Virus record (IMG/VR): IMGVR_UViG_2700989272_000006 | Coordinates: 1 to 19,695 of that record | Length of the DNA stretch: 19,695 bases | Reading direction: 5' to 3' (one strand) | From: a virus | Lineage: Duplodnaviria; Heunggongvirae; Uroviricota; Caudoviricetes | In this document: positions 2,866 through 19,695 of the stretch, in pieces | How the letters are laid out: each line of letters begins with the position of its first letter | How positions within the stretch are numbered: position 1 is the stretch's first letter | Translations under genes and position numbers: made by a program | The notes under the pieces: model-generated | What the model saw: only the letters and a program-made list of their open reading frames with translations | What the model was told of the DNA's origin: nothing | The model's database searches: none

Positions 2866-2932
2866 AACCCCACCTCGCAGATGCGGGTGCTGTGTAATGG
2901 AAATAAAAAGGCCACCTGACGTGGACACCAGA

Positions 2933-4135: not shown

Positions 4136-4339
4136 TTACTGGCAGCGTCTGAATTTATTCCCGTACCCGCCGTTATCCTTCGCCAGACCCGCCAGAACTA
4201 ACTGAGTCAGTATTAACTGGCACCGGGCTTCGCTTACTCCGGTAGTTCTCGTCATCATGCGTGGCGTTACCCACTTGTCAGCAGGTAAGAAATGAAGGAC
4301 TGCGGCGGCGGTTTCTGTCATATCTTGCTGTTTTAGCAT
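4136..4339 (-). CDS. Small putative winged-helix DNA-binding protein (67-75 aa)
   Basis: ORF 4136..4363; internal ATG at 4339 has an AAGGGA SD 7 nt upstream; sequence (TETAAAVLHFLPADKWVTPRMMTRTTGVSEARCQLILTQLVLAGLAKDNGG) has a wHTH-like pattern. Small size makes the call tentative. Confidence 0.4.
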   Translation of the reverse strand: MLKQQDMTETAAAVLHFLPADKWVTPRMMTRTTGVSEARCQLILTQLVLAGLAKDNGGYGNKFRRCQ

Positions 4340-4460
4340 GTCTTTTTCCCTTCTGGTTAACATGACATACCAATAACTCTTGTCTAAAAATCCAGCAAGA
4401 TAAAAAGTCAGTATTCACGACCACCAGCGTGTTTACTGTACTGCACCAAGTTTACAGGTA

Positions 4461-4487
4461 CAAAAAACCCGCTCAGTGGCGGGTTTA
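4461..4487 (-). terminator. Rho-independent terminator downstream of the 205-aa gene
   Basis: On the minus strand: stem acccgc / gcgggt with 6-nt loop followed by TTTTTTG; located 130 bp after the stop of the 4616..5233 gene. Confidence 0.6.
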
Positions 4488-4615
4488 AGTTGTGTGGCGA
4501 AGTAACCACTCTTAACACACTAATAGCATTTTTGTTATAACACAAGTAGCTCATTCAGTATTTTTAGAATCTTGACTTTCTTAAGCACGGCGAACTCTGA
4601 ATACCAAACATAAAA

Positions 4616-5233
4616 TCAATTATCTTCCAGGCCGGATGCTATCAACGAAAGCCTCTCAAAAAACGCTGTAGCAGCCTTGTCCAAAGTTGAATAAGTACTG
4701 TATTCTCCGTGTTCGGGACCAACCACTACCCATGGTCGTCTTTTTGGGATTCGGGACTTCTCAGAAATCACTGTTCCAGATATACCAATATCAATTGTTA
4801 CACCTGTTATTATTTTCTCTTCATCTCTTTCCCTGAACTCAATTGCCATAAATGCCGTTTTTTTTCGTTTCCCGTTTTTAAAAAAATCAAATAAAGCAAA
4901 GCGATGCTCATTAAAATCAACACCCCATCGTCCTTCAGGATAAAGGGCATGAAAGTTGTCATTTACGCTCTGCATCGTCTCATAAGCTTTAACTTCTAAA
5001 TCTCCATAGTGCATAGATACCGCGCAGGAGTCACTGGGTAACTGTATTTTCCCAAGATTGAAAACCTTTACTGCTCCAGAACTATGGCATCTTGCCCGCA
5101 ATTTATCCCCATTTATACTAATCGGAGAAATATTCCTTAATGTTCCGGGCTGGCTCCCTCCTAAGTAAACGACTGTTAAAGATTGCTTATTTTCAATTGC
5201 ATCAACTAATACATGCTCTACATTTTTATCCAT
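4616..5233 (-). CDS. Hypothetical protein (205 aa), AT-rich moron immediately downstream of Q
   Basis: ATG at 5233 with GGGAGG SD 5 nt upstream (the ORF-track start at 5260 is upstream of the SD). Lower GC than flanking phage genes; own terminator. No domain confidently recognised; the N-terminal 65 aa (LTVVYLGGSQPGTLRNISPISINGDKLRARC...VKVFNLGKIQL) weakly resemble a WYL/SH3-like beta-barrel pattern. Confidence 0.65.
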   Translation of the reverse strand: MDKNVEHVLVDAIENKQSLTVVYLGGSQPGTLRNISPISINGDKLRARCHSSGAVKVFNLGKIQLPSDSCAVSMHYGDLEVKAYETMQSVNDNFHALYPEGRWGVDFNEHRFALFDFFKNGKRKKTAFMAIEFRERDEEKIITGVTIDIGISGTVISEKSRIPKRRPWVVVGPEHGEYSTYSTLDKAATAFFERLSLIASGLEDN

Positions 5234-5260
5234 AATAACCTCCCGATGAACAGGTATCAT

Positions 5261-5330
5261 CAGGAGGTTATAATAAAATATGATTATTTACTTTGATTGA
5301 ATTTATTACTATATGTAACAATCAATTTCT
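5261..5330 (-). promoter_or_regulatory. Candidate late promoter (pR-prime-like) region overlapping the Q 3' end / Q-205aa intergenic spacer
   Basis: AT-rich stretch with sigma70-like hexamers (e.g. TTGATT ... TAATAAA) directly downstream of Q, where lambdoid phages place pR-prime and qut. Exact -35/-10 not resolved. Confidence 0.25.
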
Positions 5331-5680
5331 AAAGATACCCCCAACATTGCCAGACAACCGTCAATAAACCCTTCAGCTTTCTGCAGTCTGATAACAACCT
5401 GATTAAGTGATATCCCCAGTTTTACCCCCAACGCCCGTAATGTAACCCCATACACATAATACATTTCCAGTAATTCGTATTGATACGGTTCCTTTTTCTT
5501 AAGAACTGTCATTGCAGAGCTAATGATCAGGCCATCGTCATCGCTACATTGCGGGCGGGATTTTACTTTCGAAGGAATTAATCCCTTAAAACCTGCAGCA
5601 ACAGATGACCATTCCACATCCTCGTGATTATTTGCCACCCATGCCCCCCAACGTTCAAGAACCATTTGAATATCACGCAT
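5309..5680 (-). CDS. Q: Late-gene antiterminator Q (short QuuD / 933W-type)
   Basis: MRDIQMVLERWGAWVANNHEDVEWSSVAAGFKGLIPSKVKSRPQC... matches the N-terminus of short Q antiterminators as I recall them; first ATG at 5680 with GGAGAAA SD; positioned immediately upstream of the lysis region. Confidence 0.75.
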   Translation of the reverse strand: MRDIQMVLERWGAWVANNHEDVEWSSVAAGFKGLIPSKVKSRPQCSDDDGLIISSAMTVLKKKEPYQYELLEMYYVYGVTLRALGVKLGISLNQVVIRLQKAEGFIDGCLAMLGVSLEIDCYI

Positions 5681-5697
5681 CAACTTTCTCCACAAAA

Positions 5698-6693
5698 TCA
5701 GGCCAGCACGCCTATTGCCAGCGCACGATCGATAAAACGAAATATCAGCTCCAGCTGGGAGCCATACTTCTCTTCAAATGCCACGGTATCCGCATGCAGC
5801 TCGTCGTGATGCTTTCTGCACAAAGGCAACACAAAGAGGTCATGCGCTTTTGTACCCATTCCACCCTGACCGTGGCCTATCAGGTGGTGGGGATCATCAG
5901 CAGGCTTTCCACAACATGCACACGGCTGTGTCTTAACCCAGCGCGTGTACTTTTCATTAACCCAGCGGCGGCGTTTTGGGCGTAACATAAAAGACTCCGG
6001 CGACTCCGGATCCACTTTCAGCGCCAGCACCTTTTTCGCTTTATCCTGGATGATGCTGGTGGCAGGAACCGAAGGCACAAGGTCACTCTCCCGGGTGACA
6101 GACGGCACAACAGGTTTCGGTAATCTCAGCGCCTTACGGGCTGCGCTTTCAGGTAAGGCATCCGCCAGGTCATTACGAATCAGCCACCAGCACAGTTCCG
6201 GCATTGTCACGGCATGGTTATCATCAAAACCGAGATCCCGACGGACTACAGACAACACCCAGCGGGCACAGTTATCCGTTGCCATTGATTCCAGCCGTTC
6301 CGTGAACTGATCGCGCAGCTGGTTATCGCAGTGCCAGCACAGACGGATTGCGCCCGGAGCGTGTCGCATTGTGGTCATGTTCTCGCTGTGCCAGTCGGAA
6401 TGAGGCCACTGGCAGCCTTTTTCACGAAGTAACCAGCTTTCAAGACATTCCACGCCACCAGCACGACGGATCACTGCCTCATTGCGGAACACGGCCCGAA
6501 CGGCAGGATCATCCGCCAGCGGTTGTGATACCGCCGGAACGGCACCACTGGCGAAAGATGAATAACGTTCCGGCTCAGGCTCCAGCAGGACACGCCCCTG
6601 CATAAACAGGGGCATCAGCTCTGAACCTGGCCTGAACAATACGATCCCCATACGCGGGGCAATTTCAGGGGTCAGTAGTGCTCTCACGGTCAC
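5698..6693 (-). CDS. DUF968-like protein (YdfU-like) with C-terminal HNH/zinc-finger-like motif
   Basis: C-terminal CxxC ... HH ... H pattern (CACCGKPADDPHHLIGHGQGGMGTKAHDLFVLPLCRKHHDELH); occupies the YdfU position upstream of Q. Start uncertain (GTG 6693 or ATG 6651). Confidence 0.65.
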   Translation of the reverse strand: MTVRALLTPEIAPRMGIVLFRPGSELMPLFMQGRVLLEPEPERYSSFASGAVPAVSQPLADDPAVRAVFRNEAVIRRAGGVECLESWLLREKGCQWPHSDWHSENMTTMRHAPGAIRLCWHCDNQLRDQFTERLESMATDNCARWVLSVVRRDLGFDDNHAVTMPELCWWLIRNDLADALPESAARKALRLPKPVVPSVTRESDLVPSVPATSIIQDKAKKVLALKVDPESPESFMLRPKRRRWVNEKYTRWVKTQPCACCGKPADDPHHLIGHGQGGMGTKAHDLFVLPLCRKHHDELHADTVAFEEKYGSQLELIFRFIDRALAIGVLA

Positions 6694-6694
6694 C

Positions 6695-7504
6695 TCAATG
6701 AACGGTATCGAGCAGCTTTAACAGCTCAGGGAATCGGGATTCGAAGAAATGCGGCTGCGTCTCACGCGGATTTGCGGGACTGGTGATGTTCTTGCCGAAC
6801 ATGCAGCCTTTCGCCGTCAGCGACCAGAATTTTTTGATGTTGTTAATCCCGGTACGGCTGTATCGTTCGCGCTGCTCGACGATCCCCAGCTTCACCATCT
6901 GGTGATATGCCTGATTAGCCGTCAGGCGGATACCATACTGCTTCAGCAGTGCACTCAGCGACAGCGTCGGGCGGCTTGAGCCATCAGGCGCGTCAGCAGG
7001 TGCATCAATGGCATAGCGCGGTGCCAGATTCGGTAAGCCAACAGCCTCCTGGAGTTTCTGACAGGCACCAAGCACTGAAGAGTTAGACAGATTTAACTCC
7101 CGGCGCATAAAGTCCAGCAGGATCACGCCAGCCTGCATCTTGTCAGCAGCCTGTCCGGATAACTTTTCCGGCGCGCTGGTTACCATATCGAAAGTACGGA
7201 TCACCTTCAGATGGAATGACGGGCTGATCCACATTGCATAGGCATACACCAGTTCCTTACAGACATACGTTCCCCGTTCATTTCCCCCATGAATCACACT
7301 CACCGGGTCAACACCCAAATTCTGGGTGTTGGTTAATTCATGAACAAGCTCAACAGTTTGTTGGCTGGAAAGAAACTTTCCTGGCTCCTTGGTTCTGGCA
7401 TTTGCACCAGATGCTACTGCTGCGCGATGCAGATCGTTCAGGCTGTAACGCCCATAAGCATCACGACGAACTTCAATACCATCAATGACCATCAGATTAT
7501 TCAT
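6695..7504 (-). CDS. KilA-N domain protein (antirepressor-like)
   Basis: N-terminal KilA-N-like pattern (MVIDGIEVRRDAYGRYSLNDLHRAA...GGNERGTYVCKELVYAYAMWISPSFHLKV); ATG at 7504 with AGGAG-type SD. Confidence 0.7.
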   Translation of the reverse strand: MNNLMVIDGIEVRRDAYGRYSLNDLHRAAVASGANARTKEPGKFLSSQQTVELVHELTNTQNLGVDPVSVIHGGNERGTYVCKELVYAYAMWISPSFHLKVIRTFDMVTSAPEKLSGQAADKMQAGVILLDFMRRELNLSNSSVLGACQKLQEAVGLPNLAPRYAIDAPADAPDGSSRPTLSLSALLKQYGIRLTANQAYHQMVKLGIVEQRERYSRTGINNIKKFWSLTAKGCMFGKNITSPANPRETQPHFFESRFPELLKLLDTVH

Positions 7505-7523
7505 ACTTCGTTTCTCCTCTTAA

Positions 7524-7913
7524 TCAGGCAGCTGCACCCGCCGTTTTCTCGTACTTACTGATAGTGATCTCGACCTTCCCTTCCGGGATAACCGGTCCCC
7601 ACTCCACCAGCATTCTTTTCACCTGACTGTCGTCTTCCCACACCCCCGCGTGGGTCAGGGCGTCAAACAGCGCCTTGTTATAGTTGTCCAGATCGCGGAT
7701 CCTGTTATCCGGAGGAAACAACACGATCTCCACTGAAGCAGGTGCCGACGTTGGTTTCGGCAGACGACGTAACTGCTCAACTATTGCTGCACACGCCGCG
7801 CTCTGGAATTTGCGCCCCGCCGCGCTTATCAGGCTCTTACCTGCAAACGCCACTTTGTTGGGGTGTCGCCAGTACGTGTTCACGCTGGGCGGAAAAGGCA
7901 GTATTAGCTTCAT
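7524..7913 (-). CDS. rusA: Holliday junction resolvase RusA
   Basis: 129 aa; MKLILPFPPSVNTYWRH ... RIRDLDNYNKALFDALTHAGVWEDDSQV matches RusA family hallmarks (PxxxN..Y, catalytic DLDN). ATGA overlap with the upstream gene. Confidence 0.8.
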   Translation of the reverse strand: MKLILPFPPSVNTYWRHPNKVAFAGKSLISAAGRKFQSAACAAIVEQLRRLPKPTSAPASVEIVLFPPDNRIRDLDNYNKALFDALTHAGVWEDDSQVKRMLVEWGPVIPEGKVEITISKYEKTAGAAA

Positions 7914-8236
7914 ACTTTCAGGCCCCTCTCATGTAACCAGTGGGCTGCACGCAACCTGGCGTTCTCCTCACCGGCAAGCAGTGCGCGGATGATACCGACC
8001 GCCTCGCTGTCGTCGTCCTTCACCGCGGTATGAAGCGTGATGCCCCGGGCCACGCCACGCTTTATCGTGATGACGCCTTTTTTCTCCAGTGCGCGAAGAT
8101 GCTCCACCGCTGCATTCACTGAACGGTATCCCAGCATGGTTGCCACCTCCTGATTGGTTGGCGGGAAGCCACGTTCTTTCTGATAAGAAATCAGCATATC
8201 CAGCACCTGCTGCTGGCATTGAGTTAACGTCGTCAT
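7910..8236 (-). CDS. LexA DNA-binding-domain-only protein (winged helix, no S24 peptidase domain)
   Basis: MTTLTQCQQQVLDMLISYQKERGFPPTNQEVATMLGYRSVNAAVEHLRALEKKGVITIKRGVARGITL is collinear with the LexA N-terminal domain (LTxRQxEV ... GxPPT ... EHLKALxxKGxI); only 108 aa, so the catalytic domain is absent. Confidence 0.75.
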   Translation of the reverse strand: MTTLTQCQQQVLDMLISYQKERGFPPTNQEVATMLGYRSVNAAVEHLRALEKKGVITIKRGVARGITLHTAVKDDDSEAVGIIRALLAGEENARLRAAHWLHERGLKV

Positions 8237-8886
8237 GCCGCCATCTCCCTGACCAGTTTTTCTGCCTGCTGGCGAACCTGCGCCAGAAAGGCCTCACCAC
8301 ATGCCTCAAGTTCATCGCGCCCGATGTAGCTGATTGCCGGTCCCTTCCAGGTCTTGTCGAAAACAGCAATAGCACCAGCGAAGAAAGCGCCTGTCGGCAC
8401 CTGCTTCTCATCCTTCGGGATAAACCAGGCAGGCAGTTCAAAACCAATACGCCCGCGAATAAAAGCAATATGATCTGCATCTTCCGGCCACCACACTTCG
8501 CTGGTGGCAGCTTTGATCAGGAAAACATAGCGCCCGCCTTTATCACGCATGGCACTGGCATGCTTCATGATGTAACGCATGCCGGTGATGTATTGCCCCT
8601 CATGCTGACTGGCGCGGCTGTATGGGGGATTACCAAAGGCAGCACCTTTAAGCTCCGCAAGGCGTTCTGACCAGTCATGCGCCAGCGCGTTGTCTTCCGC
8701 CGTGTAATACGCAGCACATTTGGCGTTATCACCGTCAGTGAACAGATCCAGAACAAACGGGCCAAACAGGGTGTTAATTCCCCAGAAAATGTTGTCCGGC
8801 GTGCGCCACTGATCGCCCACTTCCTTCAGTTCATGGGCTGGTTTGTTCCGCAGTTCCGCCAGCGCCTGGCAATATTTATTACTCAT
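8233..8886 (-). CDS. Phage Dam-type DNA N6-adenine methyltransferase
   Basis: NPPY catalytic motif (FGNPPYS) in a phage N-6-adenine-MTase-like context; ATG at 8886 in a TAATG overlap with the upstream gene; ATGA overlap with the downstream gene. Confidence 0.8.
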   Translation of the reverse strand: MSNKYCQALAELRNKPAHELKEVGDQWRTPDNIFWGINTLFGPFVLDLFTDGDNAKCAAYYTAEDNALAHDWSERLAELKGAAFGNPPYSRASQHEGQYITGMRYIMKHASAMRDKGGRYVFLIKAATSEVWWPEDADHIAFIRGRIGFELPAWFIPKDEKQVPTGAFFAGAIAVFDKTWKGPAISYIGRDELEACGEAFLAQVRQQAEKLVREMAA

Positions 8887-9380
8887 TAAGCCCCCACGTA
8901 ATTCCCTGAGAGATACCACTCTTCACCTGATGCAGCCCGCTTACTGCTTTTCCGTAAACACCGTTCACGACGCGCCAGAAAATTGTTTCGTTCTGGCTGG
9001 GAGTGGCTTTCACGGAATGCCGCCATCCACACCGTTGCAGCACGACGGTATAAGCCCCTCGACTCCAGTTCTTCAGCCTGGCGGGTCAGGCACAAAATCA
9101 CCCGGGGGTCGTTAGTGCCGACATAGAACTTGCGCACAGGTCTGGTTTCACGAACTGGTTGTGGTTCCGGCTCCTGCGCTCTCTCAGTCAGGCGCGAGAA
9201 ATGTCTGCGTGTATCTCCTTCACAACGGTGAGCCACACGCCCACTCTGACGTAACTTGCTTGCTGACTGCAGAACGCGCTGCCGTGAGTAACCTGCAAAA
9301 GCATCCGCAATGTCTCCGGAAGTACAGCCCGGATGGGCTTCAATGAATTTCTGAACTTCATTCAAAATACTCATGCTCAC
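8886..9380 (-). CDS. wHTH-PerC-like protein (C-terminal PerC-family motif)
   Basis: C-terminal segment AEELESRGLYRRAATVWMAAF...ARRERCLR resembles the PerC/Pch signature (LExxGLWRRAAxRW) as I remember it; N-terminal 90 aa look like a winged helix. Start GTG 9380 (GTGA overlap with O-like stop) or ATG 9374. Confidence 0.45.
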   Translation of the reverse strand: MSMSILNEVQKFIEAHPGCTSGDIADAFAGYSRQRVLQSASKLRQSGRVAHRCEGDTRRHFSRLTERAQEPEPQPVRETRPVRKFYVGTNDPRVILCLTRQAEELESRGLYRRAATVWMAAFRESHSQPERNNFLARRERCLRKSSKRAASGEEWYLSGNYVGA

Positions 9381-10369
9381 CCCCTGAATCCTGCCGGGAT
9401 CTGGCTGTAGTCCACGTTGTCGTAACTGGATTTGAAATATGGGTCTTCGCGTTTTTCTGTGTATGTGCTGACGGACGGCGATAAGCGCAGGGAAAGCTCA
9501 TCCCATTTTTCCCGCAGCTTCGACGGGCTGAGCACGTTACGGCACCAGAACGGATCGCGGCTGACGCGGCTGTACATCTCGCAGATTTGTTTGTGAGTAC
9601 GACCATCCTGCACACACATCAGGCGAATTTCGTTTGCCCAGGCTGTCCAGTTCGGTTCTTTGGGACGAACCACCTCGCCGTCACATTCGGCGGCCTGCTC
9701 GTACAGGGCGATGATTTTTTTCCAGAGCCACTGTGCGCAGGTCAAATCATCCTGCGTTCCCCACTGGCGCTTTTTAGGGCTGAATACAACCGCATCAGGA
9801 TGGCGAGTTAAAAACTCCTGTTCAGCCGTTTGCGTGTCCGGTTGCGAAGCGTCCGGACGAGAAGAGGTTTTATTCTCTGTAGTAATCTCTGTTGTATTCT
9901 CTGTAAGATCATTGGGCCATTTTGACCCGATGACAGCGTGTCGTTTTGAACCAATGGATCGTGTCATTTTGCGCCCATCCATCAGGTCACTTTGACCCGA
10001 TGGAGAAGTGCATTTTGACCTGATGGATTCGTTCACTTTGACCTCTTCTAAAAGCTCACTTTCATAGTTGATCGTGTAGAAGTTGGTCATGTCACGCTTC
10101 GATTTATTGAGTTGCTCGCGACGCAAAACCCCAAGTGATTTCAGGCTTGCAAATGTGCGTTTCAGAGTGGACTCTGACCAGAACGGAAACTGCTCCAGCC
10201 ACTGTTCTGTCGTGTTATAAACCCAGCGAATTCCGCCATGCTCAGTGCCTGAATTCGTTTCATTCAGCCAGTAATGAAGCTGCTGCAACACAATTGCCTC
10301 ATTCAGACCAATACGGCATGCAAGATCACGATTTATCACAATGGGCTGGGATGTCATTAACAGGCTCAT
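9377..10369 (-). CDS. Replication initiator (lambda O-like; iteron-containing gene)
   Basis: 330-aa ORF containing an internal array of six direct repeats plus 12-bp repeats encoding a Thr/Glu/Asn-rich linker (TENTTEITTENKT), the hallmark of lambdoid O genes that carry ori; N-terminal domain is HTH-like. The C-terminal domain family is not confidently assigned. Confidence 0.7.
   Translation of the reverse strand: MSLLMTSQPIVINRDLACRIGLNEAIVLQQLHYWLNETNSGTEHGGIRWVYNTTEQWLEQFPFWSESTLKRTFASLKSLGVLRREQLNKSKRDMTNFYTINYESELLEEVKVNESIRSKCTSPSGQSDLMDGRKMTRSIGSKRHAVIGSKWPNDLTENTTEITTENKTSSRPDASQPDTQTAEQEFLTRHPDAVVFSPKKRQWGTQDDLTCAQWLWKKIIALYEQAAECDGEVVRPKEPNWTAWANEIRLMCVQDGRTHKQICEMYSRVSRDPFWCRNVLSPSKLREKWDELSLRLSPSVSTYTEKREDPYFKSSYDNVDYSQIPAGFRG
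9872..9907. repeat. Three tandem 12-bp repeats (TCTCTGT core) flanking the iteron array
   Basis: ctctgt cores at 9875, 9887 and 9899; adjacent to the iterons, analogous to the repeat/AT-rich region next to lambda ori; encodes the TEN/TEI/TEN linker. Confidence 0.55.
9918..10045. repeat. Origin-like iteron array: six direct repeats (consensus approx CAYTTTGACCYGATGG) at 23-bp spacing
   Basis: Repeat starts at 9918, 9941, 9965, 9988, 10011, 10034 (cattttgacccgatg / tcgttttgaaccaatgg / cattttgcgcccatcc / cactttgacccgatgg / cattttgacctgatgg / cactttgacctc), all inside the O-like gene. Confidence 0.75.
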
Positions 10370-10590
10370 GCCGCACCTCCGAGATGCTTCATGTTTTTTC
10401 CGGAGCGAAAGGCTATAAGCGGCATACTGACGCGGTAATTACGGCCCAGCGGTTCACAAATCACCTTCTGACATTCACGGTCAACCAGGCTAACACGTAG
10501 AACATGCCCTGCAGGCGTGGTGTACCACTGACCGGGGCGAGGACAACGGAAAGTCTGATTGGTAAATCGTTTGAAAATATTCCGGATCAT
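10366..10590 (-). CDS. Hypothetical protein (74 aa), translationally coupled within the replication operon
   Basis: ATG at 10590 overlaps the Rha-gene TGA stop (ATGA), and its own stop overlaps the O-like ATG (ATGA); no recognisable domain. Confidence 0.5.
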   Translation of the reverse strand: MIRNIFKRFTNQTFRCPRPGQWYTTPAGHVLRVSLVDRECQKVICEPLGRNYRVSMPLIAFRSGKNMKHLGGAA

Positions 10591-11735
10591 TTGCGCCCCC
10601 TTACCTCTGAAGAGTTCAGCGACGAATGAATAAGACGGGCAAGAAATGCCGCATCGTTAATTCGGTCATACAGACTTACAGCCAGAGGTGATTCAGCTTT
10701 TTCCAGCATGGGATAAAGCTGCTGCAACCAGACCTGATGAATTGATGAAATGTAGGAATAGAGAACGCTGGCGTTATGTGCAACGTCGCTCGGTACAGCG
10801 GGCTTTGAAAGCTGTTTCTCCATCTGGTTAAAGGCATTGATGTATGCCTCTTTGAACTGGGCAGCACGTTTACCCGTGAAACCCATAGCAAGAAACGCAA
10901 AGCCGTCGCGGGTTATTTGATAGCAAGGTAGTTTGCGGCCTGTGCAATCGGTGTAATCACTCACCGAAAAATTGCGGGCAGTGAATGATGCGGAACATTC
11001 AAGCGTGCGGATCTTTTTCAGTACATCGTCATGACGTTTGGAGAAGAAGTTGGCAACAGCCAGGGATGAAGTAACAGCCTGACCATCAACGATGGCAATT
11101 TCAGGTTGAGTGAGGGTTGGGATCGTAGCCATGATGGCAGTCTCCGATAACAGTGAATTACCTTCACCACCGGAAACGCCAATTTCGCTGGTGGTGAACT
11201 GAACGGGGTTGGCGTAACCGGCGTTATCGGAAACCGGCGCACCTTTCGGTGCCCCCGTCCAGCCCACCATAATTTGGGTGTGCACAGACGCAGACGATAA
11301 AAAAGACGCTGGCGCGTCATATATCGCCGATAACATTTCCAGGACGCCAATCCCGACACCCGCTTTATAAGGTGCCTGAACAGTGTAACGTCCCGGAATG
11401 GCAGAATCAATGTGCTGGTGGTCCTTCACACTCAACAAAATCACGCCTGAATTTCCACAAAGGACTAAAGCACTCATGCGGGTAGTCTTTGCGAAGATAG
11501 ATAACGCGCTGTGTTTCTGGCTCCCAACGAATAACATGGACATAAAGCCCTCTTCCGTCACGAAACCAGCGGTTAAGTTCCTGCACAACTCGCCCCCCAC
11601 AGTCAGGTAAAGTTCTCTGTGGTTACTTACAGCCAGGTGATTTGGTAATCTGCATTCATGCCGTAACAACAGGTGTTCAGCGACGCTGACCACCAGCTGT
11701 TGCGACAAACGGTTATTTGCCGTTAAACTGTTCAT
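10587..11735 (-). CDS. Rha-domain phage regulatory protein with about 200-aa N-terminal extension of unknown function
   Basis: Residues about 205-300 (VTSSLAVANFFSKRHDDVLKKIRTLECS...YQITRDGFAFLAMGFTGKRAAQFKEAYINAF) match the Rha/ORF6-type pattern; ATG at 11735 with GGAGAAA SD and ATGA overlap with the upstream stop support the long form. The N-terminal half has atypical composition. Confidence 0.6.
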   Translation of the reverse strand: MNSLTANNRLSQQLVVSVAEHLLLRHECRLPNHLAVSNHRELYLTVGGELCRNLTAGFVTEEGFMSMLFVGSQKHSALSIFAKTTRMSALVLCGNSGVILLSVKDHQHIDSAIPGRYTVQAPYKAGVGIGVLEMLSAIYDAPASFLSSASVHTQIMVGWTGAPKGAPVSDNAGYANPVQFTTSEIGVSGGEGNSLLSETAIMATIPTLTQPEIAIVDGQAVTSSLAVANFFSKRHDDVLKKIRTLECSASFTARNFSVSDYTDCTGRKLPCYQITRDGFAFLAMGFTGKRAAQFKEAYINAFNQMEKQLSKPAVPSDVAHNASVLYSYISSIHQVWLQQLYPMLEKAESPLAVSLYDRINDAAFLARLIHSSLNSSEVRGRK

Positions 11736-12295
11736 GCGTTAGTTTCTCCACAGACACAAAACGCCACGACGCCCGGAGCTGCACACTCGCGGGCGTCACT
11801 CTTTTCTGGAGCGCAAAAGATTTTGTAGACCAGTGCTGCATGCTCCTGGAGCTTCGAAATTGACAGATACAACTCATCATTAATTGCTGTCTGCTCGTGT
11901 GGCTCCACTACCCCATCTTCGATTGCCGAACGAATCTGCTTTGAGTAACTCCCGATCTGTTCGATGACTTCCAGCAGGCGCTGGTTTATATCGGCGTTCT
12001 CTACTTCCTCAAGTTCAGGAAGCGATACAAACACCCCACCAGCAGACTGTGCGACAGCATCCGCAATGTAGTGAGTGCCAGCCGCGCGCTGTAAAATCAT
12101 TGCCCATCCCAGCGGGAAAATCTGATCGCCATCTGCACGAAGGCGGTTGAATAAAGCGTTCTCTGTTACATCCAGCCACTCAGCAGCTTCAGCGTAACCT
12201 CCCGGCAACGCCGCGATAGTTTTTCTGACAGCTTTCACGTACCACTCAGGCTGTTTTTCTACTTTCCAGTGATGCTTACCCACGGTTAGCCTCAT
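11732..12295 (-). CDS. Early regulatory protein in cII position (cII/YdaT-like), function unverified
   Basis: 187-aa ORF directly downstream of cro-like gene; HTH-like segment (GYAEAAEWLDVTENALFNRLR); assignment is positional. Confidence 0.45.
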   Translation of the reverse strand: MRLTVGKHHWKVEKQPEWYVKAVRKTIAALPGGYAEAAEWLDVTENALFNRLRADGDQIFPLGWAMILQRAAGTHYIADAVAQSAGGVFVSLPELEEVENADINQRLLEVIEQIGSYSKQIRSAIEDGVVEPHEQTAINDELYLSISKLQEHAALVYKIFCAPEKSDARECAAPGVVAFCVCGETNA

Positions 12296-12326
12296 CGTTC
12301 TGTGGTTAAAAATTGAAGGTGTTCTG

Positions 12327-12527
12327 TTAATCTTTCGGATAGATATCCGGTCTTAAGTCAGATTTCGTAATTGCACCTGACGTGCATTGCTCAAGTTTTT
12401 TAGCCAGCACAAAACTGGCTTTTTTATAACCATTGAAAACCAGCCGTAAGTAGCCTGGTGTTGAGCCAACTTTTCCGGCCAACTCGCCCTGCTGTTCTTT
12501 GGTTAAAGAGTCCCAATACGCTTTCAT
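12327..12527 (-). CDS. cro: Cro-like repressor (66 aa)
   Basis: C-terminal part of ORF 12327..12830 (MKAYWDSLTKEQQGELAGKVGSTPGYLRLVFNGYKKASFVLAKKLEQCTSGAITKSDLRPDIYPKD) resembles Cro/YdaS-type HTH; internal ATG at 12527 has a GGAGG SD and lies just downstream of the PR-like promoter. The upstream part of the ORF overlaps cI antisense and is considered non-coding. Confidence 0.65.
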   Translation of the reverse strand: MKAYWDSLTKEQQGELAGKVGSTPGYLRLVFNGYKKASFVLAKKLEQCTSGAITKSDLRPDIYPKD

Positions 12528-12617
12528 ACAATATGTACCTCCGATATACATATTACATGATTGAGATGAACCTTCAAGATACTTGTACCCTATCGGTACA
12601 AAGGTTTTAATTTCGTT
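12528..12617. promoter_or_regulatory. OR-like divergent control region: two 19-bp palindromic operators (12533-12551 ATGTACCtccgaTATACAT; 12583-12601 TTGTACCctatcGGTACAA) and PR-like promoter (minus; -35 TTGAAG 12572-12577, -10 TAATAT 12550-12555)
   Basis: Perfect or near-perfect 7-5-7 palindromes sharing the half-site (A/T)TGTA(C/T)C, positioned between divergent cI-like and cro-like genes; the -10 overlaps operator 1. Confidence 0.65.
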
Positions 12618-13292
12618 ATGAAAACAGTCCATGACATCCGGCGGTCTAACGCCAGAAAACTGAGAGATGGTGTTGGCGGGAATTCTTCCTTTGCCACCAT
12701 GATTGATCGCGAGCCAACCCAGACCAGCAGGTTTATGGGAGATGGTGCTACTAAAAATATCGGTGACAGCATGGCACGGCACATCGAAAAATGTTTCGAC
12801 CTGCCTGTCGGATGGCTTGATCAAGAACACCAGACAACAAACATCACAAAAAAACCTGATGTTTCAATTACTAACAAACAAATAACGTTAGTCCCTGTCA
12901 TATCATGGGTACAGGCCGGAGCATGGAAAGAAGTTGGCTATTCTGAGGTTGATTTGAGCACAGCAGAAACTTATCCCTGCCCTGTACCCTGTGGCGAAAT
13001 GACTTATATCTTGCGGGTGATTGGTGATTCAATGATTGATGAGTACCGCCCGGGAGACATGATTTTTGTTGATCCTGAAGTCCCTGCCTGCCACGGTGAC
13101 GACGTTATTGCATTGATGCACGATACAGGCGAAACCACCTTCAAGCGGTTGATAGAAGATGGAACACAGCGTTACCTCAAAGCATTAAACCCAAACTGGC
13201 CTGAACCTTACATTAAGATCAACGGTAATTGCTCTATAATTGGTACAGTGATTTTCTCAGGAAAACCAAGAAGATACAAAATAAAGGCCTAA
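12618..13292 (+). CDS. cI: CI-like prophage repressor with C-terminal S24 (LexA-like) autopeptidase domain
   Basis: C-terminal domain with Ser/Lys dyad context (VIGDSM ... TFKRL) and Ala-Gly cleavage-site-like motif (VISWVQAGAW); N-terminal 70 aa HTH-like; divergent from cro with operators between. An in-frame TGA at 12567-12569 rules out an upstream extension. Confidence 0.85.
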   Translation: MKTVHDIRRSNARKLRDGVGGNSSFATMIDREPTQTSRFMGDGATKNIGDSMARHIEKCFDLPVGWLDQEHQTTNITKKPDVSITNKQITLVPVISWVQAGAWKEVGYSEVDLSTAETYPCPVPCGEMTYILRVIGDSMIDEYRPGDMIFVDPEVPACHGDDVIALMHDTGETTFKRLIEDGTQRYLKALNPNWPEPYIKINGNCSIIGTVIFSGKPRRYKIKA

Positions 13293-13304
13293 TCAATATT
13301 TATA

Positions 13305-13328
13305 ACCTGCTTCGGCAGGTTTTTTTAT
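13305..13328 (+). terminator. Intrinsic terminator after cI (acctgc-ttcg-gcaggt + TTTTTTAT)
   Basis: 6-bp GC-rich stem, GNRA-like tetraloop, 6-T run immediately downstream of cI stop (13290-13292). Confidence 0.7.
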
Positions 13329-13330
13329 AC

Positions 13331-13375
13331 TTGACAATGTACCCTTGAGATACATAATGTATCTAAAAGAAACAT
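13331..13375 (+). promoter_or_regulatory. pL-like promoter (-35 TTGACA 13331-13336, 16-bp spacer, -10 CATAAT 13353-13358) overlapped by two operator palindromes (13337-13355 ATGTACCcttgaGATACAT; 13357-13375 ATGTATCtaaaaGAAACAT)
   Basis: Consensus -35 and near-consensus -10 with proper spacing; operators share the half-site found in OR and sit in the spacer and over the -10, as expected for repressor control of an early-left promoter. Confidence 0.7.
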
Positions 13376-13978
13376 AACACAGGCAAGATTAAACTAAATT
13401 TGGTTGTAACACGGCGTATGGCACATGCGTCGTTAGCGGTCTGGGGACGTTAAAGGGGACAATCCACTCCTTGCTCGAGCAAACAAACCAGGTAGCCGGA
13501 ATGTGCAAGTCAATGATGATGCTGATAAGACGCCTAACCAGCGTGGCGATTCGGTTTGACGCCTGGGAAGAGACCAGGGTGCAACGATGAGGGCATTTAT
13601 GGAACCGCGACAAAGTGTGGTGCCGTAACTGGCTAAGTGCTCTCAGCGTTGTGGTGAATGCGCAGGCTGATGCGCGAAAGACATTGCAGCTATTGCGGAA
13701 AAGAGCTGTTCGGCGGGGCAATTAAACGCCCGTGAGAGTCTGAAATAACCGCAAGCCGGAGATCAGCACCGGTCACCACAACAGCCACTGCTTTGGCGGT
13801 ACCAGTTTGTACACTTGCTTCCGGCTGGTACCGCTCTTTTTACAAAACAGAGAAGAGCATCACCGGACGACGGGCTCATAACCCAATCCATCCGGGCGGC
13901 TGCCACCGCAGGTGTTCTTCTCTGTTTTGTGGAGAAACTAACCGACCTTGCAGGGTCGATATGATGAGGAGCAGCAAA

Positions 13979-14341
13979 ATGGCTAGCGAACGCAGTACTG
14001 ATGTGCAGGCATTTATCGGGGAGCTGGACGGCGGCGTATTTGAAACCAAAATCGGCGCAGTTCTCAGTGAAGTCGCTTCCGGTGTGATGAACACGAAAAC
14101 CAAAGGTAAGGTCTCGCTCAACCTGGAAATCGAACCATTTGATGAGAACCGTGTGAAAATCAAACACAAACTCTCATATGTTCGCCCGACTAACCGCGGG
14201 AAAATTTCCGAAGAAGACACCACCGAAACACCGATGTATGTCAATCGCGGTGGTCGCCTGACTATTCTGCAGGAAGACCAGGGACAATTACTGACTCTTG
14301 CCGGTGAACCTGACGGAAAACTACGCGCAGCAGGTCATTAA
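13979..14341 (+). CDS. Hypothetical early-left protein (120 aa; YfdP-like by size and position, unverified)
   Basis: ATG at 13979 with GAGGAG SD 7 nt upstream; the longer ORF-track form (from 13793) lacks an SD and is probably leader. Confidence 0.55.
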   Translation: MASERSTDVQAFIGELDGGVFETKIGAVLSEVASGVMNTKTKGKVSLNLEIEPFDENRVKIKHKLSYVRPTNRGKISEEDTTETPMYVNRGGRLTILQEDQGQLLTLAGEPDGKLRAAGH

Positions 14342-14406
14342 TATCGTTCTTAATTAACTGATTATTTATCTCATCACTGAATATCTTTATATAGTGAGGA
14401 CTGATT

Positions 14407-15231
14407 ATGTCTCATAACTTAGACGCAACCGCAATTAATCAAATCCATGCCCTTATTTCTGCTCAGGGTGTTAATGAAATCATCAGTAAGATTGGTGCCG
14501 ATGCTGTGGCATTGCCTGAGAATTTCCGCATTCATGATCTGGAAAAATTTAATTTAAATCGTTTCCGTTTCCGTGGTGCGCTTTCCACTGCCAGCATCGA
14601 TGACTTTACCCGTTATTCTAAAGATCTTGCAGATGAAGGCACCCGCTGCTTTATCGATGCCGATAATATGCGTGCCGTCAGTGTGCTTAACCTGGGTACT
14701 ATTGATGAGCCAGGTCACGCAGATAACACTGCCACTCTCAAACTGAAAAAGACAGCACCGTTCTCTGCTCTGTTGTCTGTTAATGGCGAGCGTAACTCCC
14801 AGAAGTCACTGGCAGAATGGATTGAAGACTGGGCCGACTACCTTGTGGGCTTTGATGCTAATGGTGACACCATTCAGGCAACCAAAGCGGCTGCGGCGAT
14901 CCGTAAAATCACAATTGAAGCGAACCAGACCGCTGATTTTGAAGATAATGACTTCAGCGGCAAACGCTCCCTGATGGAGTCTGTCGAAGCGAAGACCAAA
15001 GACATTATGCCAGTGGCATTTGAATTTAAATGCGTTCCGTTTGAAGGCCTGAAAGAACGTCCATTTAAATTACGCCTCAGCATTATCACTGGCGATCGTC
15101 CTGTACTGGTTCTGCGCATTATTCAGCTGGAAGCGGTGCAGGAAGAAATGGCTAACGAATTTCGTGATCTGCTTGTTGAGAAATTCAAAGACAGCAAAGT
15201 AGAAACCTTTATTGGTACTTTCACCGCCTGA
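14407..15231 (+). CDS. Hypothetical protein, DUF2303-like (YfdQ-like), 274 aa
   Basis: ATG at 14407 with GAGGA SD; size and operon context match the CPS-53 yfdQ-type gene as I recall it; no catalytic motif identified. Confidence 0.6.
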
Positions 15232-15358
15232 TTTCATTACTGCAAATGCCCCTGCGGGGGCATTTATGGAAACGTAATTAACTCAATAATCACCGAATGG
15301 TGAGGGCTTCCTTTTACCAGAATTCAGCGCGGTGCAGTGCATATACGTGGAGAACAAA

Positions 15359-15895
15359 ATGTCATTTATTAAAACTTTTTCCGGGAAGCATTTTTATTAT
15401 GACAAGATAAATAAAGACGACATCGTTATTAACGATATCGCGGTTTCCCTTTCAAATATCTGTCGCTTTGCAGGACATCTTTCACACTTCTACAGCGTCG
15501 CCCAACATGCGGTGCTTTGCAGCCAGCTGGTACCGCAGGAATTTGCTTTTGAAGCGTTAATGCATGATGCAACAGAAGCATATTGTCAGGACATCCCCGC
15601 ACCACTGAAACGCCTTCTTCCTGACTATAAACGGATGGAAGAAAAAATAGACGCCGTAATCCGTGAGAAATACGGGTTACCTCCTGTTATGAGCACGCCA
15701 GTGAAATATGCCGATCTCATTATGCTGGCAACCGAACGCCGCGATCTCGGGCTTGATGATGGTTCTTTCTGGCCTGTACTGGAAGGTATCCCGGCGACAG
15801 AGATGTTCAAAGTTATTCCACTGTCACCAGGCCATGCCTACGGGATGTTTATGGAACGTTTTAACGAGTTATCGGGGTTACGCAAATGCGCATGA
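15359..15895 (+). CDS. HD-domain phosphohydrolase (YfdR-like 5'-deoxynucleotidase family), 178 aa
   Basis: HD motif in LMHDATEAYCQDIP plus upstream His (FAGHLSHF...AQH); ATG at 15359 with GGAGAA SD; the ORF-track start at 15332 lacks an SD. Confidence 0.7.
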   Translation: MSFIKTFSGKHFYYDKINKDDIVINDIAVSLSNICRFAGHLSHFYSVAQHAVLCSQLVPQEFAFEALMHDATEAYCQDIPAPLKRLLPDYKRMEEKIDAVIREKYGLPPVMSTPVKYADLIMLATERRDLGLDDGSFWPVLEGIPATEMFKVIPLSPGHAYGMFMERFNELSGLRKCA

Positions 15896-16473
15896 ATGTT
15901 TTCGAAATGGAAGGGTTTCTTCGCGGGAAATGTGTACCGCGAGATCTGAAAGTGAACGAAACAAACGCTGAGTACCTGGTGCGTAAATTTGCTGAAGCTG
16001 AGGCCAAGTGCGCGGCGCTGGCTGAACGTATCGAAGAGTTACAGACAAAACCTACGCCAGATTCGTTTGGCATCATCGGTGAAAACATTCGAACACAGGA
16101 TAATCGAATAACGTCAGACCCTATGTTTTGTGTGTATCAAAAGCGCGAAATTGTTGTTGATGCTGATTATGACTATGACCGGATTGTCTGGGTTGATGAA
16201 GATAGCAATGAAGCCAATAAACTCCAAAGTCGTCGTCTCGAACTACTTCATGAAAACTTTCGGGAACCACCAGAAAAATGGCGGCGCGTTGCTGTGAAAG
16301 ATATTGATGAATTCGTTACCTGCTGTTTCACCGAACAGGGTTGTAAAGACTACCTGGCAGCCAATGGTCACAATCTTCGCTTGCCATTTATATATGTAAA
16401 AAGCGGTTTCAGGAACGCTGAATATATCGGCATAAGAAACTGGCTTGCTGGCATTCGCATCAAAGGAGAGTGA
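15886..16473 (+). CDS. Hypothetical protein (195 aa)
   Basis: ORF overlapping the stop of the HD gene by 10 nt; acidic, coiled-coil-like N-terminus; no recognised domain. Confidence 0.55.
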   Translation: MRMNVFEMEGFLRGKCVPRDLKVNETNAEYLVRKFAEAEAKCAALAERIEELQTKPTPDSFGIIGENIRTQDNRITSDPMFCVYQKREIVVDADYDYDRIVWVDEDSNEANKLQSRRLELLHENFREPPEKWRRVAVKDIDEFVTCCFTEQGCKDYLAANGHNLRLPFIYVKSGFRNAEYIGIRNWLAGIRIKGE

Positions 16474-16474
16474 G

Positions 16475-16666
16475 ATGATCGGACAAATATCAATTGTTCG
16501 ACCGGGAGCATGTGACGATCGCGAGATACGAATGATTATTCGTCTGGCAATAGGGAAAACAATAACTGCTCTCATTACTCCTGAAAATCTCGCATTAGCG
16601 TTAACAGGAAAGTCAGACCTGCCAGTAGAGCTAAAGCTGCGAAATATTGAGATTAAAGTGAAATAG
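16475..16666 (+). CDS. Small hypothetical protein (63 aa)
   Basis: ATG at 16475 with GGAGAG SD; the stop of the preceding gene overlaps the start (TGAGATG). Confidence 0.4.
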   Translation: MIGQISIVRPGACDDREIRMIIRLAIGKTITALITPENLALALTGKSDLPVELKLRNIEIKVK

Positions 16667-16668
16667 TT

Positions 16669-17556
16669 ATGAATACTCTTACCAAAGAATGGTTACAGAA
16701 CACGATTACCGGAATTGAGTCGATAATAGACGATAAATCGTTTGTATGTAGTGAAATAGCATTCGAAATAGGTGTGGTTAACAACATACTTACCGCATTT
16801 AAAATTGCACTGGCATCGCTGGAAGCAGATCCAGTTGCTTATATTTTCAAACATCCGGCCGGGAAATTATTCTGGGCTTTAACTGATGAAAGCAATAAAG
16901 AGCAAGCTGACGTTATTCCTGTTTATGCTGCCGCGCCTGCGTCGGTTGTGCCGGATAATGCATCAGAGCCTCTTGCTTATGCTTACAAAGAGCTTACGCC
17001 TGAGATTATGCGCAACCATTTAGCTGTATTCGAGCGATATGGAATAGCCCCAAACGATAGCTCTACCACAATTCAGGCACTGCGAATCGCGCTGGATGGC
17101 ATAGAGCGGAGCGGCGCCATGCTTCATGGTGCCGAACCTGTAAGCCAAACTTACAAGTTGCCTCCCCTGTCATCCAACGAAGTAAACGACGCGGCATGGA
17201 AATTACGCAACATGCTTACTGAACACGGTCCTCTTAATGGGCGTCAGTTCAACAATCTGAAAGGTTGCTTCTATGAGGCATTAAAGGTCGCAATGCGCAA
17301 CTATCCGGTAACTCCGGATAGTTGGATAAGCTGTAGTGATCGAATGCCAGAAATGGGAGAGCGACAATGCTATGCGTTAGCGGCTGACTTTAAAAACAAC
17401 TACCCGCCACACATCCCCAACACTCAGGTCGGCGTATATGGCGACTGGTTTAATGATGGCGATCCCACTTGGGTTGACGGTGATGGCGAAGACCTGTATC
17501 TCAAAGAGGTAACCCACTGGATTCCGCTACCAGAACCGCCGCAGGAGGTGAAGTGA
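16669..17556 (+). CDS. Hypothetical protein with DUF551-like C-terminus
   Basis: C-terminal ...EVTHWIPLPEPP motif typical of DUF551 phage proteins (from memory); 295 aa; the stop overlaps the next gene start. Confidence 0.6.
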   Translation: MNTLTKEWLQNTITGIESIIDDKSFVCSEIAFEIGVVNNILTAFKIALASLEADPVAYIFKHPAGKLFWALTDESNKEQADVIPVYAAAPASVVPDNASEPLAYAYKELTPEIMRNHLAVFERYGIAPNDSSTTIQALRIALDGIERSGAMLHGAEPVSQTYKLPPLSSNEVNDAAWKLRNMLTEHGPLNGRQFNNLKGCFYEALKVAMRNYPVTPDSWISCSDRMPEMGERQCYALAADFKNNYPPHIPNTQVGVYGDWFNDGDPTWVDGDGEDLYLKEVTHWIPLPEPPQEVK

Positions 17557-18128
17557 TGAACAACTTAATGATCGACCTTGAGACGATGGGGAAAAATAAG
17601 GATGCACCGATCGTTTCCATTGGCGCGGTGTTCTTCACTCCAGAAACCGGAGACATCGGACAAGAATTCTATACGGTTGTTAGCCTGGAAAGTGCTATGG
17701 GGCAAGGAGCTACACCTGACGGCGATACCATCCTGTGGTGGTTGAAACAAAGCCCTGAAGCACGAGCTGCAATCTGTATTGATGATACTTTGTCGATCAG
17801 CGATGCTCTCTCAGAACTAAATCATTTCATTAACCGGCACGCAGACAATACGAAATATTTAAAAGTCTGGGGTAACGGAGCCACCTTCGACAACGTAATT
17901 TTACGTGGAGCTTATGAGCGAGCAGGACAAATCTGTCCGTGGGCATACTGGAATGACCACGATGTACGCACGATCGTTACGCTTGGGCGTTCCATCGGAT
18001 TCGACCCCAAAATGGACATGCCTTTCGATGGCGAACGGCACAACGCCATGGCTGATGCCCGTCATCAGGCAAAATATGTTTCCGCTATCTGGCAGAAATT
18101 AATTCCTGCCACCAGCACAGAATTATGA
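17556..18128 (+). CDS. DEDDh-type 3'-5' exonuclease (DnaQ/RNase T-like fold)
   Basis: Exo motif I (IDLETMG), motif II-like (WGNGATFD), motif III (HNAMADARH); ATG at 17556 with GGAGGTG SD 5 nt upstream (the GTG at 17553 is the alternative start). Confidence 0.8.
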   Translation: MNNLMIDLETMGKNKDAPIVSIGAVFFTPETGDIGQEFYTVVSLESAMGQGATPDGDTILWWLKQSPEARAAICIDDTLSISDALSELNHFINRHADNTKYLKVWGNGATFDNVILRGAYERAGQICPWAYWNDHDVRTIVTLGRSIGFDPKMDMPFDGERHNAMADARHQAKYVSAIWQKLIPATSTEL

Positions 18129-18164
18129 TTTTCCCGGGTGCAGCCGGTTTTGATGGAGAAAATT

Positions 18165-18446
18165 ATGAACACCTTGTTTTTACTGATGGCTGAATTCAAT
18201 ACCCCTAACATTGAACTCTCAGCAGTTAGCCAAAAGTACTTTGGCATGAGTCCAGCCACGGCAGAAGCAAAAGCAAACGCTTGTAAGTTGCCCGTTCCAA
18301 CATATCGCATCGGCACATCACAAAAAGCAAAACGTTGCATCAATATTCAGGATCTTGCGGAATACATAGACAAAAGACGAGAAGAAGGACGTATCGAGTG
18401 GGAACAGGTCAGAACAAGCAAACAGAAGGGCAAAGAACATCACTAA
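18165..18446 (+). CDS. Small DNA-binding protein, PrtN/excisionase-like (tentative)
   Basis: MNTLFLLMAEFNTPNIELSAVSQKYFGMSPATAEAKANACKLPVPTYRIGTSQKAKRCINIQDLAEYIDKRREEG resembles the PrtN-family pattern as I recall it; last gene of the early-left operon before the terminator. Start 18165 or 18153. Confidence 0.5.
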   Translation: MNTLFLLMAEFNTPNIELSAVSQKYFGMSPATAEAKANACKLPVPTYRIGTSQKAKRCINIQDLAEYIDKRREEGRIEWEQVRTSKQKGKEHH

Positions 18447-18448
18447 AT

Positions 18449-18476
18449 AAAAAACCCGCCTAAAGGCGGGTTTTCA
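18449..18476. terminator. Bidirectional intrinsic terminator (AAAAAA cccgcc-taaa-ggcggg TTTT)
   Basis: 6-bp GC stem, 4-nt loop, flanked by an A-run and a T-run; sits between the convergent plus-strand early-left operon and the minus-strand accessory module. Confidence 0.75.
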
Positions 18477-18493
18477 AAAAGCACCAGCTATGA

Positions 18494-18667
18494 TCATGCT
18501 GCTTTGCGACGACGAAGCTTACCCTGCTGCTCTTTACCAGAGACAGTAGCGTGAGTGAACGCATTAGGAGCAGCCTTCATCAGAACTTCAACAGCAGCAC
18601 CCATACCTGCGAATGCTTTCATTGTGTCGAACTTAACCTGTGGCTTGGTTGCTTTTTGATCTTCCAT
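18494..18667 (-). CDS. Small hypothetical protein (57 aa), below the ORF-track cutoff
   Basis: Reverse complement gives ATG GAA GAT CAA ... (MEDQKATKPQVKFDTMKAFAGMGAAVEVLMKAAPNAFTHATVSGKEQQGKLRRRKAA) with an AGGAG SD 7 nt upstream and the bidirectional terminator just downstream. Confidence 0.4.
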   Translation of the reverse strand: MEDQKATKPQVKFDTMKAFAGMGAAVEVLMKAAPNAFTHATVSGKEQQGKLRRRKAA

Positions 18668-18706
18668 AGAAAACTCCTGAAGTTATACCGAAACAATTCC
18701 TGTTGT

Positions 18707-19126
18707 TTACTCATCATCAATAGATGATACGCAATATTTATTTTTAAATTTAAGGTTCTTTGGCGTAACTTCATCAGAGATATCAAAACCGTCCAGAATT
18801 CTATTGAATGTAGCTTCTGGCATATCATCATGAACAGAAATCTCACCCGATCGCTGCTTTCTAACCATGTTATCCACTCGCCAAATTATAGCTTCAGCGT
18901 AAACAACATAACTTGGATGCTTGATAAAGCGATGATCACCAGAATTCAAGACGCAAGACGGATCGTGGGGGACACCATCCTTGATACTAGAAATATTAAC
19001 AACTAAAACACAATAACAATCGTTAACGGGGTAATAAACAGGATCATTACAAATCACATGAAGATGATTGCATGGCCCAGTTGGGGCAAGCACAGTTCCT
19101 TTCCTGTATGGCTGATAATCCGTCAT
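18707..19126 (-). CDS. Hypothetical protein (139 aa), translationally coupled partner of the Panacea-domain gene (candidate toxin/effector)
   Basis: ATG at 19126 overlaps the TGA stop of the upstream gene (ATGA); AT-rich; Cys/His-rich N-terminal half (GPCNHLHVICNDPVYYPVNDCYC); no recognised domain. Confidence 0.6.
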   Translation of the reverse strand: MTDYQPYRKGTVLAPTGPCNHLHVICNDPVYYPVNDCYCVLVVNISSIKDGVPHDPSCVLNSGDHRFIKHPSYVVYAEAIIWRVDNMVRKQRSGEISVHDDMPEATFNRILDGFDISDEVTPKNLKFKNKYCVSSIDDE

Positions 19127-19695
19127 GATAATTGCAAAGAAAATTCCTTAAGTTTCTGAGATTCTTCCATTTTGCCAATTATGCGATTAGCCTCATCCTC
19201 GCTTTTACCCTCACTGATCAGCATTTCTTTCAGGTCTATAGGCTTACGAGAATTGCCAGGATCGTGCCACTCTGGACAAACGCTTTCTAGATGCGTCATA
19301 TTTGCGAGATCAAATCGGTTCATATGCCCATACCGAGAATAGATTTCATCTAAAATCCGGATATCTGCACGACTCAATTCATCAAAGACCTCGTCTGCAT
19401 CCATTTCCCTCGGATCTGAACGCAACGATACATTATGCCCGTTCGTCTCTATCAAGTTGTACCAGTAGTCACCAATGCCTTCAGCCTTACCGCGAATCAA
19501 GTTCAGCGTATTCGACATGACTGGTCCAAATTTCATAGAGTAAAGGCTATCTTCGCCGATCATCCTGCCATGCTTCAAAATCGACTGGCGGTTAGACAGA
19601 TAGAGCAACTTCATCAATTTCAGATATGCCATGCGCCCACCTCGCTTAAGAAGTAGGTATGCAGCCATTTGAGCTACTTTTTCTTCGCAAAACAT
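19123..19695 (-). CDS. Panacea-domain (DUF4065 / COG3600 GepA-like) protein, candidate antitoxin; start coincides with the window edge
   Basis: N-terminal pattern VAQMAAYLL...YLKLMKLLYLSNRQSILKHGRMIGEDSLYSMKFGPVMSNTL and C-terminal ...MTHLESVCPEWHD match the DUF4065/SocA-like signature (L.KLQKLLYY...GPV ... TH...W) as I recall it. The ATG is at 19693-19695, so the true 5' end cannot be confirmed. Confidence 0.6.
   Translation of the reverse strand: MFCEEKVAQMAAYLLLKRGGRMAYLKLMKLLYLSNRQSILKHGRMIGEDSLYSMKFGPVMSNTLNLIRGKAEGIGDYWYNLIETNGHNVSLRSDPREMDADEVFDELSRADIRILDEIYSRYGHMNRFDLANMTHLESVCPEWHDPGNSRKPIDLKEMLISEGKSEDEANRIIGKMEESQKLKEFSLQLS

Follow-up and report, generated by a model that had tools for sequence, protein, structure and literature searches.

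The closest described relatives of the panA-panT (panAT) gene pair discussed here, which lies at the end of a 19,695-nucleotide stretch of DNA from a virus of the class Caudoviricetes (IMG/VR record IMGVR_UViG_2700989272_000006, positions 1 to 19,695; the whole stretch is called the window below), belong to the catalogue of PanA-linked toxins of Kurata et al. 2022 (PNAS, PMC8832971). In this catalogue, PanT cluster T6 carries the HHpred label 'EndoA/PemK/MazF-family RNAses'; it holds one validated pair, from Pseudomonas moraviensis BS3668, and untested pairs from Proteus, Pluralibacter gergoviae, Pantoea septica LMG 5345, 'Yersiniaceae bacterium 2016Iso4' and Photorhabdus (Dataset S1), all of them arranged antitoxin first and toxin second with overlaps of -4 or -1. 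Expression of the P. moraviensis PanT in E. coli is toxic, and its PanA, which forms a stable complex with it in pull-down, neutralises this toxicity; neutralisation is independent of ClpXP and Lon, and the toxin specifically inhibits 35S-methionine incorporation (PMC8832971).

The antitoxin of SocAB from Caulobacter crescentus contains the same Panacea (SocA) domain, but SocA is a ClpXP adaptor that sends the DnaN-binding toxin SocB to degradation, whereas T6 PanA neutralises by binding and needs neither of those proteases, and the toxins of the two systems are unrelated. In MazEF and Kis-Kid (PemIK), the antitoxin is of the MazE/AbrB type or Kis, in contrast to the Panacea protein of the window. 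CcdB of the F-plasmid CcdAB system poisons gyrase, unlike the T6 orthologue, which targets translation, and the antitoxins of these two systems are unrelated as well.

Our bioinformatic analysis suggests that the panAT pair of the window, itself a piece of a ~37-kb E. coli prophage, is a type II toxin-antitoxin (TA) module with a PanT of cluster T6; on the basis of homology to a tested system and strict synteny we put the probability of this reading at about 0.78. The first-pass annotation of this DNA had already proposed a candidate TA module in which a Panacea antitoxin gene is translationally coupled to its partner, and this is still the best reading. It had also suggested that the partner may represent a new toxin family, which has to be given up: the window panAT is a new copy of a described, partly validated T6 family. 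Toxicity and neutralisation have been shown solely for the P. moraviensis orthologue and are predicted, by analogy, for the E. coli copy.

Structure of the panAT gene pair

Three co-oriented minus-strand open reading frames (ORFs) fill the last 1.2 kb of the window. The most upstream of these is panA (19123..19695, minus strand), encoding a stand-alone Panacea (DUF4065) antitoxin of 190 aa. The DUF4065/Panacea signature that had been recognised by eye in the first-pass annotation is borne out by a profile search, in which the Pfam model SocA_Panacea (PF13274) matches residues 27-137 with an E value of 2.2e-19 and 70.9 bits (cut-off 25.7); RefSeq names the same 190-aa product 'Panacea domain-containing protein'. 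The AlphaFold2 model of PanA (pLDDT 93.2) is folded throughout, with a long helix at the C terminus (residues 166-189) and without an additional domain at the N terminus. No counterpart of PanA was found in the PDB by sequence profile search or by Foldseek (best E 2.6), and the Panacea fold appears to be without an experimental structure in the PDB copy searched.

The window ends exactly at the ATG of panA, which had raised the question of whether this ORF is a fragment of a longer gene. Extension of the sequence upstream, using E. coli chromosomes that are 99.9% identical, places a GAGG 8 nt 5' of the ATG and an in-frame stop 26 codons away with no ATG between; together with the 190-aa length of the RefSeq product, these features indicate that panA is complete. 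Some E. coli records carry an N-terminally extended PanA of 232 aa. The 90% identity cluster of the window PanA also contains the 139-aa toxin described below, which is unrelated to PanA; the overlap of the two genes has probably misled the clustering here. Phage PhiR5_2 has, beside ibrA/ibrB, an orphan gene (L034 2528-3052) for a PanA-like protein with 40% identity to that of the window; it lacks a co-oriented downstream partner, indicating that not every phage PanA has a toxin partner.

The second gene, panT (18707..19126, minus strand), encodes a 139-aa protein that is Cys/His-rich, as first noted, with six residues of each kind. The overlap of the two genes is read directly from the sequence as an ATGA (19123..19126, minus strand) that joins the panA stop to the panT start; panT has no evident Shine-Dalgarno sequence, and the overlap implies that its translation is coupled to that of panA. 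The length of the PanT protein differs between databases, being 139 aa in phage records and 128 aa in RefSeq/PGAP, where the start is placed at a GTG at codon 12, 29 nt past panA (L001 8308-8694). The first 11 residues of the longer form, which include the motif M-T-x-Y-x-P-Y-R-K-G, are conserved in the family alignment, which favours the 139-aa start, and the RefSeq start looks truncated. A similar N-terminal truncation occurs in Pseudomonas, in which 108-aa calls stand for a true length of 132 aa. We propose that one transcript would carry panA and panT and that, by way of the ATGA, translation of panT would be linked to termination at the panA stop.

Ties to PanT cluster T6

All 29 loci with enough upstream DNA, from Gamma-, Alpha- and Betaproteobacteria, encode PanA directly upstream of the panT homologue and in the same orientation; two other loci are at contig ends. 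The two genes overlap by ATGA (-4) in 13 of the 25 measured loci and by -1 in three, and for 21 of the 25, those in which a start can be placed near the PanA stop, the spacing lies between -4 and +21 nt, the small gaps being mostly in Alpha- and Betaproteobacterial loci.

Several members of the published cluster can be tied to the window directly. The genes downstream of PanA in P. gergoviae, Photorhabdus and Pseudomonas sp. encode proteins with 57%, 46% and 40% identity to the window PanT, and a genome scan added Pantoea septica LMG 5345 (56%) and Chimaeribacter coloradensis 2016-Iso4 (55%). The overlaps measured at these loci (Pantoea -4, 2016-Iso4 -1, Pluralibacter -4 and Photorhabdus -1) equal those in the table of PMC8832971. 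SDU72800.1 from P. moraviensis BS3668 (132 aa) shows 43% identity to the window PanT (E 6e-34), and the PanA beside the Pseudomonas homologue starts with MIFSEQKVAQ, as published for the P. moraviensis PanA, the corresponding residues of the window PanA being MFCEEKVAQ. The validated system and the window pair thus have in common a stand-alone PanA of ~185-190 aa with a closely similar N-terminus and, right after it, a gene for a toxin of ~132-139 aa whose start codon overlaps the stop of panA. They differ in setting and in detail: the P. moraviensis locus is listed as 'NotPhage' in the paper, whereas the window copy is on an E. coli prophage that integrates at dusA; the overlap is -1 in the former and ATGA in the latter; and several residues conserved in enterobacterial PanTs (His23, Cys26) are different in the Pseudomonas protein.

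In the literature searched there was no paper on the E. coli or dusA-prophage copy of this panAT, and the RefSeq accessions of the window were not found among the rows listed in the supplements of both PanAT papers, which does not prove their absence. Two published pairs that might be mistaken for the present system, those of E. coli MOD1_EC5558 and Salmonella phage Emek, were considered and rejected as this system, their toxins belonging to cluster T1; Emek is also not among the phage genomes with a similar PanA (tblastn).

These same two pairs bear on whether the window pair is a functioning TA system at all. Both are phage-borne and belong to the 8 of 25 tested PanTs that were not toxic in E. 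coli (PMC8832971), and by this precedent the 139-aa protein could likewise be harmless to its native host, the two genes together serving the phage in some other role. We regard this as improbable: the two non-toxic pairs have toxins of a different cluster, the tested T6 member is toxic when expressed in E. coli, the window PanT keeps all residues conserved in its family, and strict two-gene linkage with a start-stop overlap is typical of TA modules.

Predicted fold and activity of PanT

The 139-aa protein was initially described as having no recognisable domain. Its predicted structure is confident and adopts the SH3-like barrel of MazF/Kid/CcdB, with MazF-family endoribonucleases, Kid and CcdB as the top structural matches. 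The MazF-like fold agrees with the HHpred assignment of cluster T6. Homologues of PanT form 62 clusters in a word-indexed search, and an exhaustive HMM search recovered 2719 representatives at 50% identity with E<=1e-3, 945 of them at E<=1e-10. Among the 105 diverse family members compared, none lacks His21, the residues Asp55, Cys58, Gly63, His65, Phe67, Ser72, Tyr76, Gly113 and Ser117 are conserved in at least 90%, and positions 46-47 are nearly always Ser or Thr. On this basis His21, Asp55, His65, Ser72 and Tyr76 are candidate active-site residues. By eye, His21 (at the start of strand 2) and the Ser/Thr pair 46-47 (at the end of strand 4) are topologically near Arg29 and Thr52 of MazF, and may be their counterparts, judging from this topology of the model.

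Several results weigh against the proposed assignment or its MazF-like part. At the level of sequence, PF02452 (PemK_toxin) gave no match to the window PanT and touched one of the 105 family members (E 0.11), the Pfam search of the window protein returning a chance ICMT match alone (E 0.05). Alignment of the PanT family by hhalign against five MazF/Kid/EndoA/ChpBK sequences, confirmed against the PDB, gave a probability of 0.4%. Profile searches of the PDB with narrow and broad PanT alignments found no MazF, the best chance matches having E values of ~0.3-0.5, and the MazF catalytic residues Arg29 and Thr52 are not recognisably conserved in PanT. No model of PADLOC-DB v2 matches PanA, PanT or the 57-aa protein encoded downstream at E up to 1, so that the proposed PADLOC check came back negative, and NCBIfam gave two far-sub-threshold chance matches to PanT. 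Upstream of panA, the only operator-like inverted repeat is a 9-nt palindrome, and the promoter-like sigma-70 match is at chance level. The proportion of non-toxic PanTs mentioned above counts on the same side, as does the fact that we infer the equivalence of SDU72800.1 with the published WP_083201923.1 from strain and genome. The sequence profiles being without signal, the link between PanT and MazF rests on the structure and the published HHpred result.

Apart from its antitoxin, the window system is also unlike MazEF and Kis-Kid in that PanT carries additional helices at its C terminus and, at residues 48-71, a long loop that is conserved. We propose that PanT, a protein of ~130 aa with the MazF/Kid/CcdB fold, would arrest growth by stopping protein synthesis and that stand-alone PanA would neutralise it by direct binding, with no need for ClpXP or Lon. 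Of the activities that might underlie such an arrest, RNA cleavage by analogy with MazF seems the most likely, and from the fold and the translation phenotype of the orthologue we would give it about even odds.

A chemistry other than that of MazF is compatible with the conserved His/Asp/Cys/His set. PanT might not be an RNase at all but have a different activity on a MazF/CcdB scaffold, for instance the poisoning of gyrase, as in CcdB, or a reaction at a metal site made up of His/Asp/Cys/His; we consider this unlikely. A bolder form of the idea, for which the likelihood is low, combines chemistry with genomic position: PanT of cluster T6 would be a new enzyme on the MazF/CcdB scaffold, and not a MazF-type RNase; His21, Asp55, Cys58 and His65 would make up its catalytic or metal centre, and panAT, placed behind the host dusA promoter and expressed only after integration, would provide a lysogeny-specific abortive infection sensed through the Panacea domain.

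Prophage setting, neighbouring genes and possible role

The 1.3-kb module region is 99.9% identical to phage SKA5 and 99.1% identical to Lys8385Vzw. In the circular order of these phages, exo and the PrtN-type xis are followed by the 57-aa gene, panT and panA on the opposite strand, and then by attP and int, in agreement with the initial description of an accessory cargo at the prophage edge that is transcribed opposite to the exo-xis operon. The prophage integrates at the 5' end of dusA. In strain WP4-S18-ESBL-09, an intact dusA with a divergent, phage-supplied 5' end adjoins int at one prophage end, and a native 35-codon 5' fragment of dusA (MHGNSEMQ...APMLD, then 5 out-of-context codons) is left at the other (L001 9297-9654). 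From the prophage-host junction at that end, it is 254 bp to the start of panA, which has the same orientation as the native dusA promoter displaced by the integration, and no terminator-like site was found in the interval between the dusA fragment and panA. Given this downstream, co-oriented placement, panAT is probably expressed during lysogeny. In the lysogen the displaced dusA promoter would read into panAT, and its position suggests that such read-through expression would occur only after integration.

Of 5426 complete E. coli genomes, 205 have the whole panA-panT module, and identical proteins occur on at least 1000 contigs. Matches to the region occur in 565 complete E. coli genomes; the same 205 carry the pair, and ~360 match the xis and 57-aa region without panAT. 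Phage mEp460, too, has xis and the 57-aa gene but not panAT, its slot upstream of the 57-aa gene being taken by an unrelated gene of 177 aa (gp23, L035 3965-4498, minus strand), for which no Pfam or NCBIfam match was found. As for composition, the island described at first as AT-rich is so for panT (38.6% GC) and panA (43.3%) relative to the window (48.3%), but not for the 57-aa gene, which at 48.3% equals the backbone.

The 57-aa gene (18494..18667, minus strand; phrog_2741, PHROG E 8.4e-36) had been placed in the module at first; as a third component it might be, for example, a chaperone, a regulator or a second antitoxin. It begins 39 nt downstream of panT on the same strand, has the good Shine-Dalgarno sequence reported for it (AGGAG, 6 nt before the ATG) and shares a terminator with panT. 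Its occurrence next to xis in mEp460, its absence from all panAT loci outside E. coli phages and its backbone-like GC content indicate instead that it is part of the phage backbone and not of the TA module, and with the many matching E. coli genomes that lack panAT they make the three-gene module, which we rejected, very improbable. The gene is probably co-transcribed with panAT. Taken with the 205 of 565 genomes, the mEp460 slot and the absence of the 57-aa gene elsewhere argue that the cargo is a two-gene pair in a variable slot beside attP. The 57-aa protein, of unknown function, is highly conserved beside the PrtN-type excisionase in this group of phages whatever the cargo and has a basic C-terminus (KLRRRKAA).

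The minus-strand genes end at an intrinsic terminator (18450..18475, minus strand) with an 11-bp stem, including six G-C pairs, followed by a T run. The same hairpin lies directly 3' of the plus-strand xis, on whose side it is followed by TTTTC only; the terminator had been called strong and bidirectional, and while the stem and the minus-strand T run bear this out, its strength in the two directions is asymmetric. The xis-type gene itself (18138-18446, plus strand) encodes a protein of the PrtN family ('pyocin activator', PF11112) that PHROGs classes as an excisionase; RefSeq shortens the gene by 27 nt at the start, from the 309 bp of the ORF to 282 bp. Further into the window, a DUF551-containing ORF (16669-17556, plus strand) encodes 295 aa, compared with 269 aa in the near-identical prophage of WP4-S18-ESBL-09 (L001 6348-7157), a difference suggestive of local mosaicism within the early-left (ea22-like) region.

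From its position, panAT may serve either prophage stabilisation or phage-triggered growth arrest, that is, abortive infection. It could be chiefly an anti-phage system, in which the Panacea domain would sense an infecting phage and release PanT so that lysogens exclude other phages. Such a role would suit a low-GC cargo at the prophage edge, in a variable slot and probably expressed in lysogens, and the panAT pair is also found in phages of Yersinia, Vibrio, Pseudomonas and Klebsiella; set against it are the lack of any PADLOC-DB v2 match and the papers searched, which report no phage-protection data for any T6 PanAT. We hold abortive infection as the chief role to be possible, though somewhat doubtful; it is compatible with a type II TA module of cluster T6 and differs from it in biological role alone.

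For annotation, the assignment of the window pair to cluster T6 gives a name to a protein that RefSeq labels 'hypothetical', with a start that looks truncated; its family, of ~2700 representatives at 50% identity, is covered by no Pfam, NCBIfam or PADLOC model. This PanAT is carried on a dusA prophage by ~4% of complete E. coli genomes, and the locus is a convenient native E. coli system in which to study the target of a T6 toxin, neutralisation by a stand-alone Panacea protein and the possible sensing of a phage cue. With the displaced dusA promoter in front of it, panAT may have a simple means of being expressed in an integration-dependent way, and the questions of chemistry, neutralisation and release trigger concern the whole T6 family and not this locus alone.

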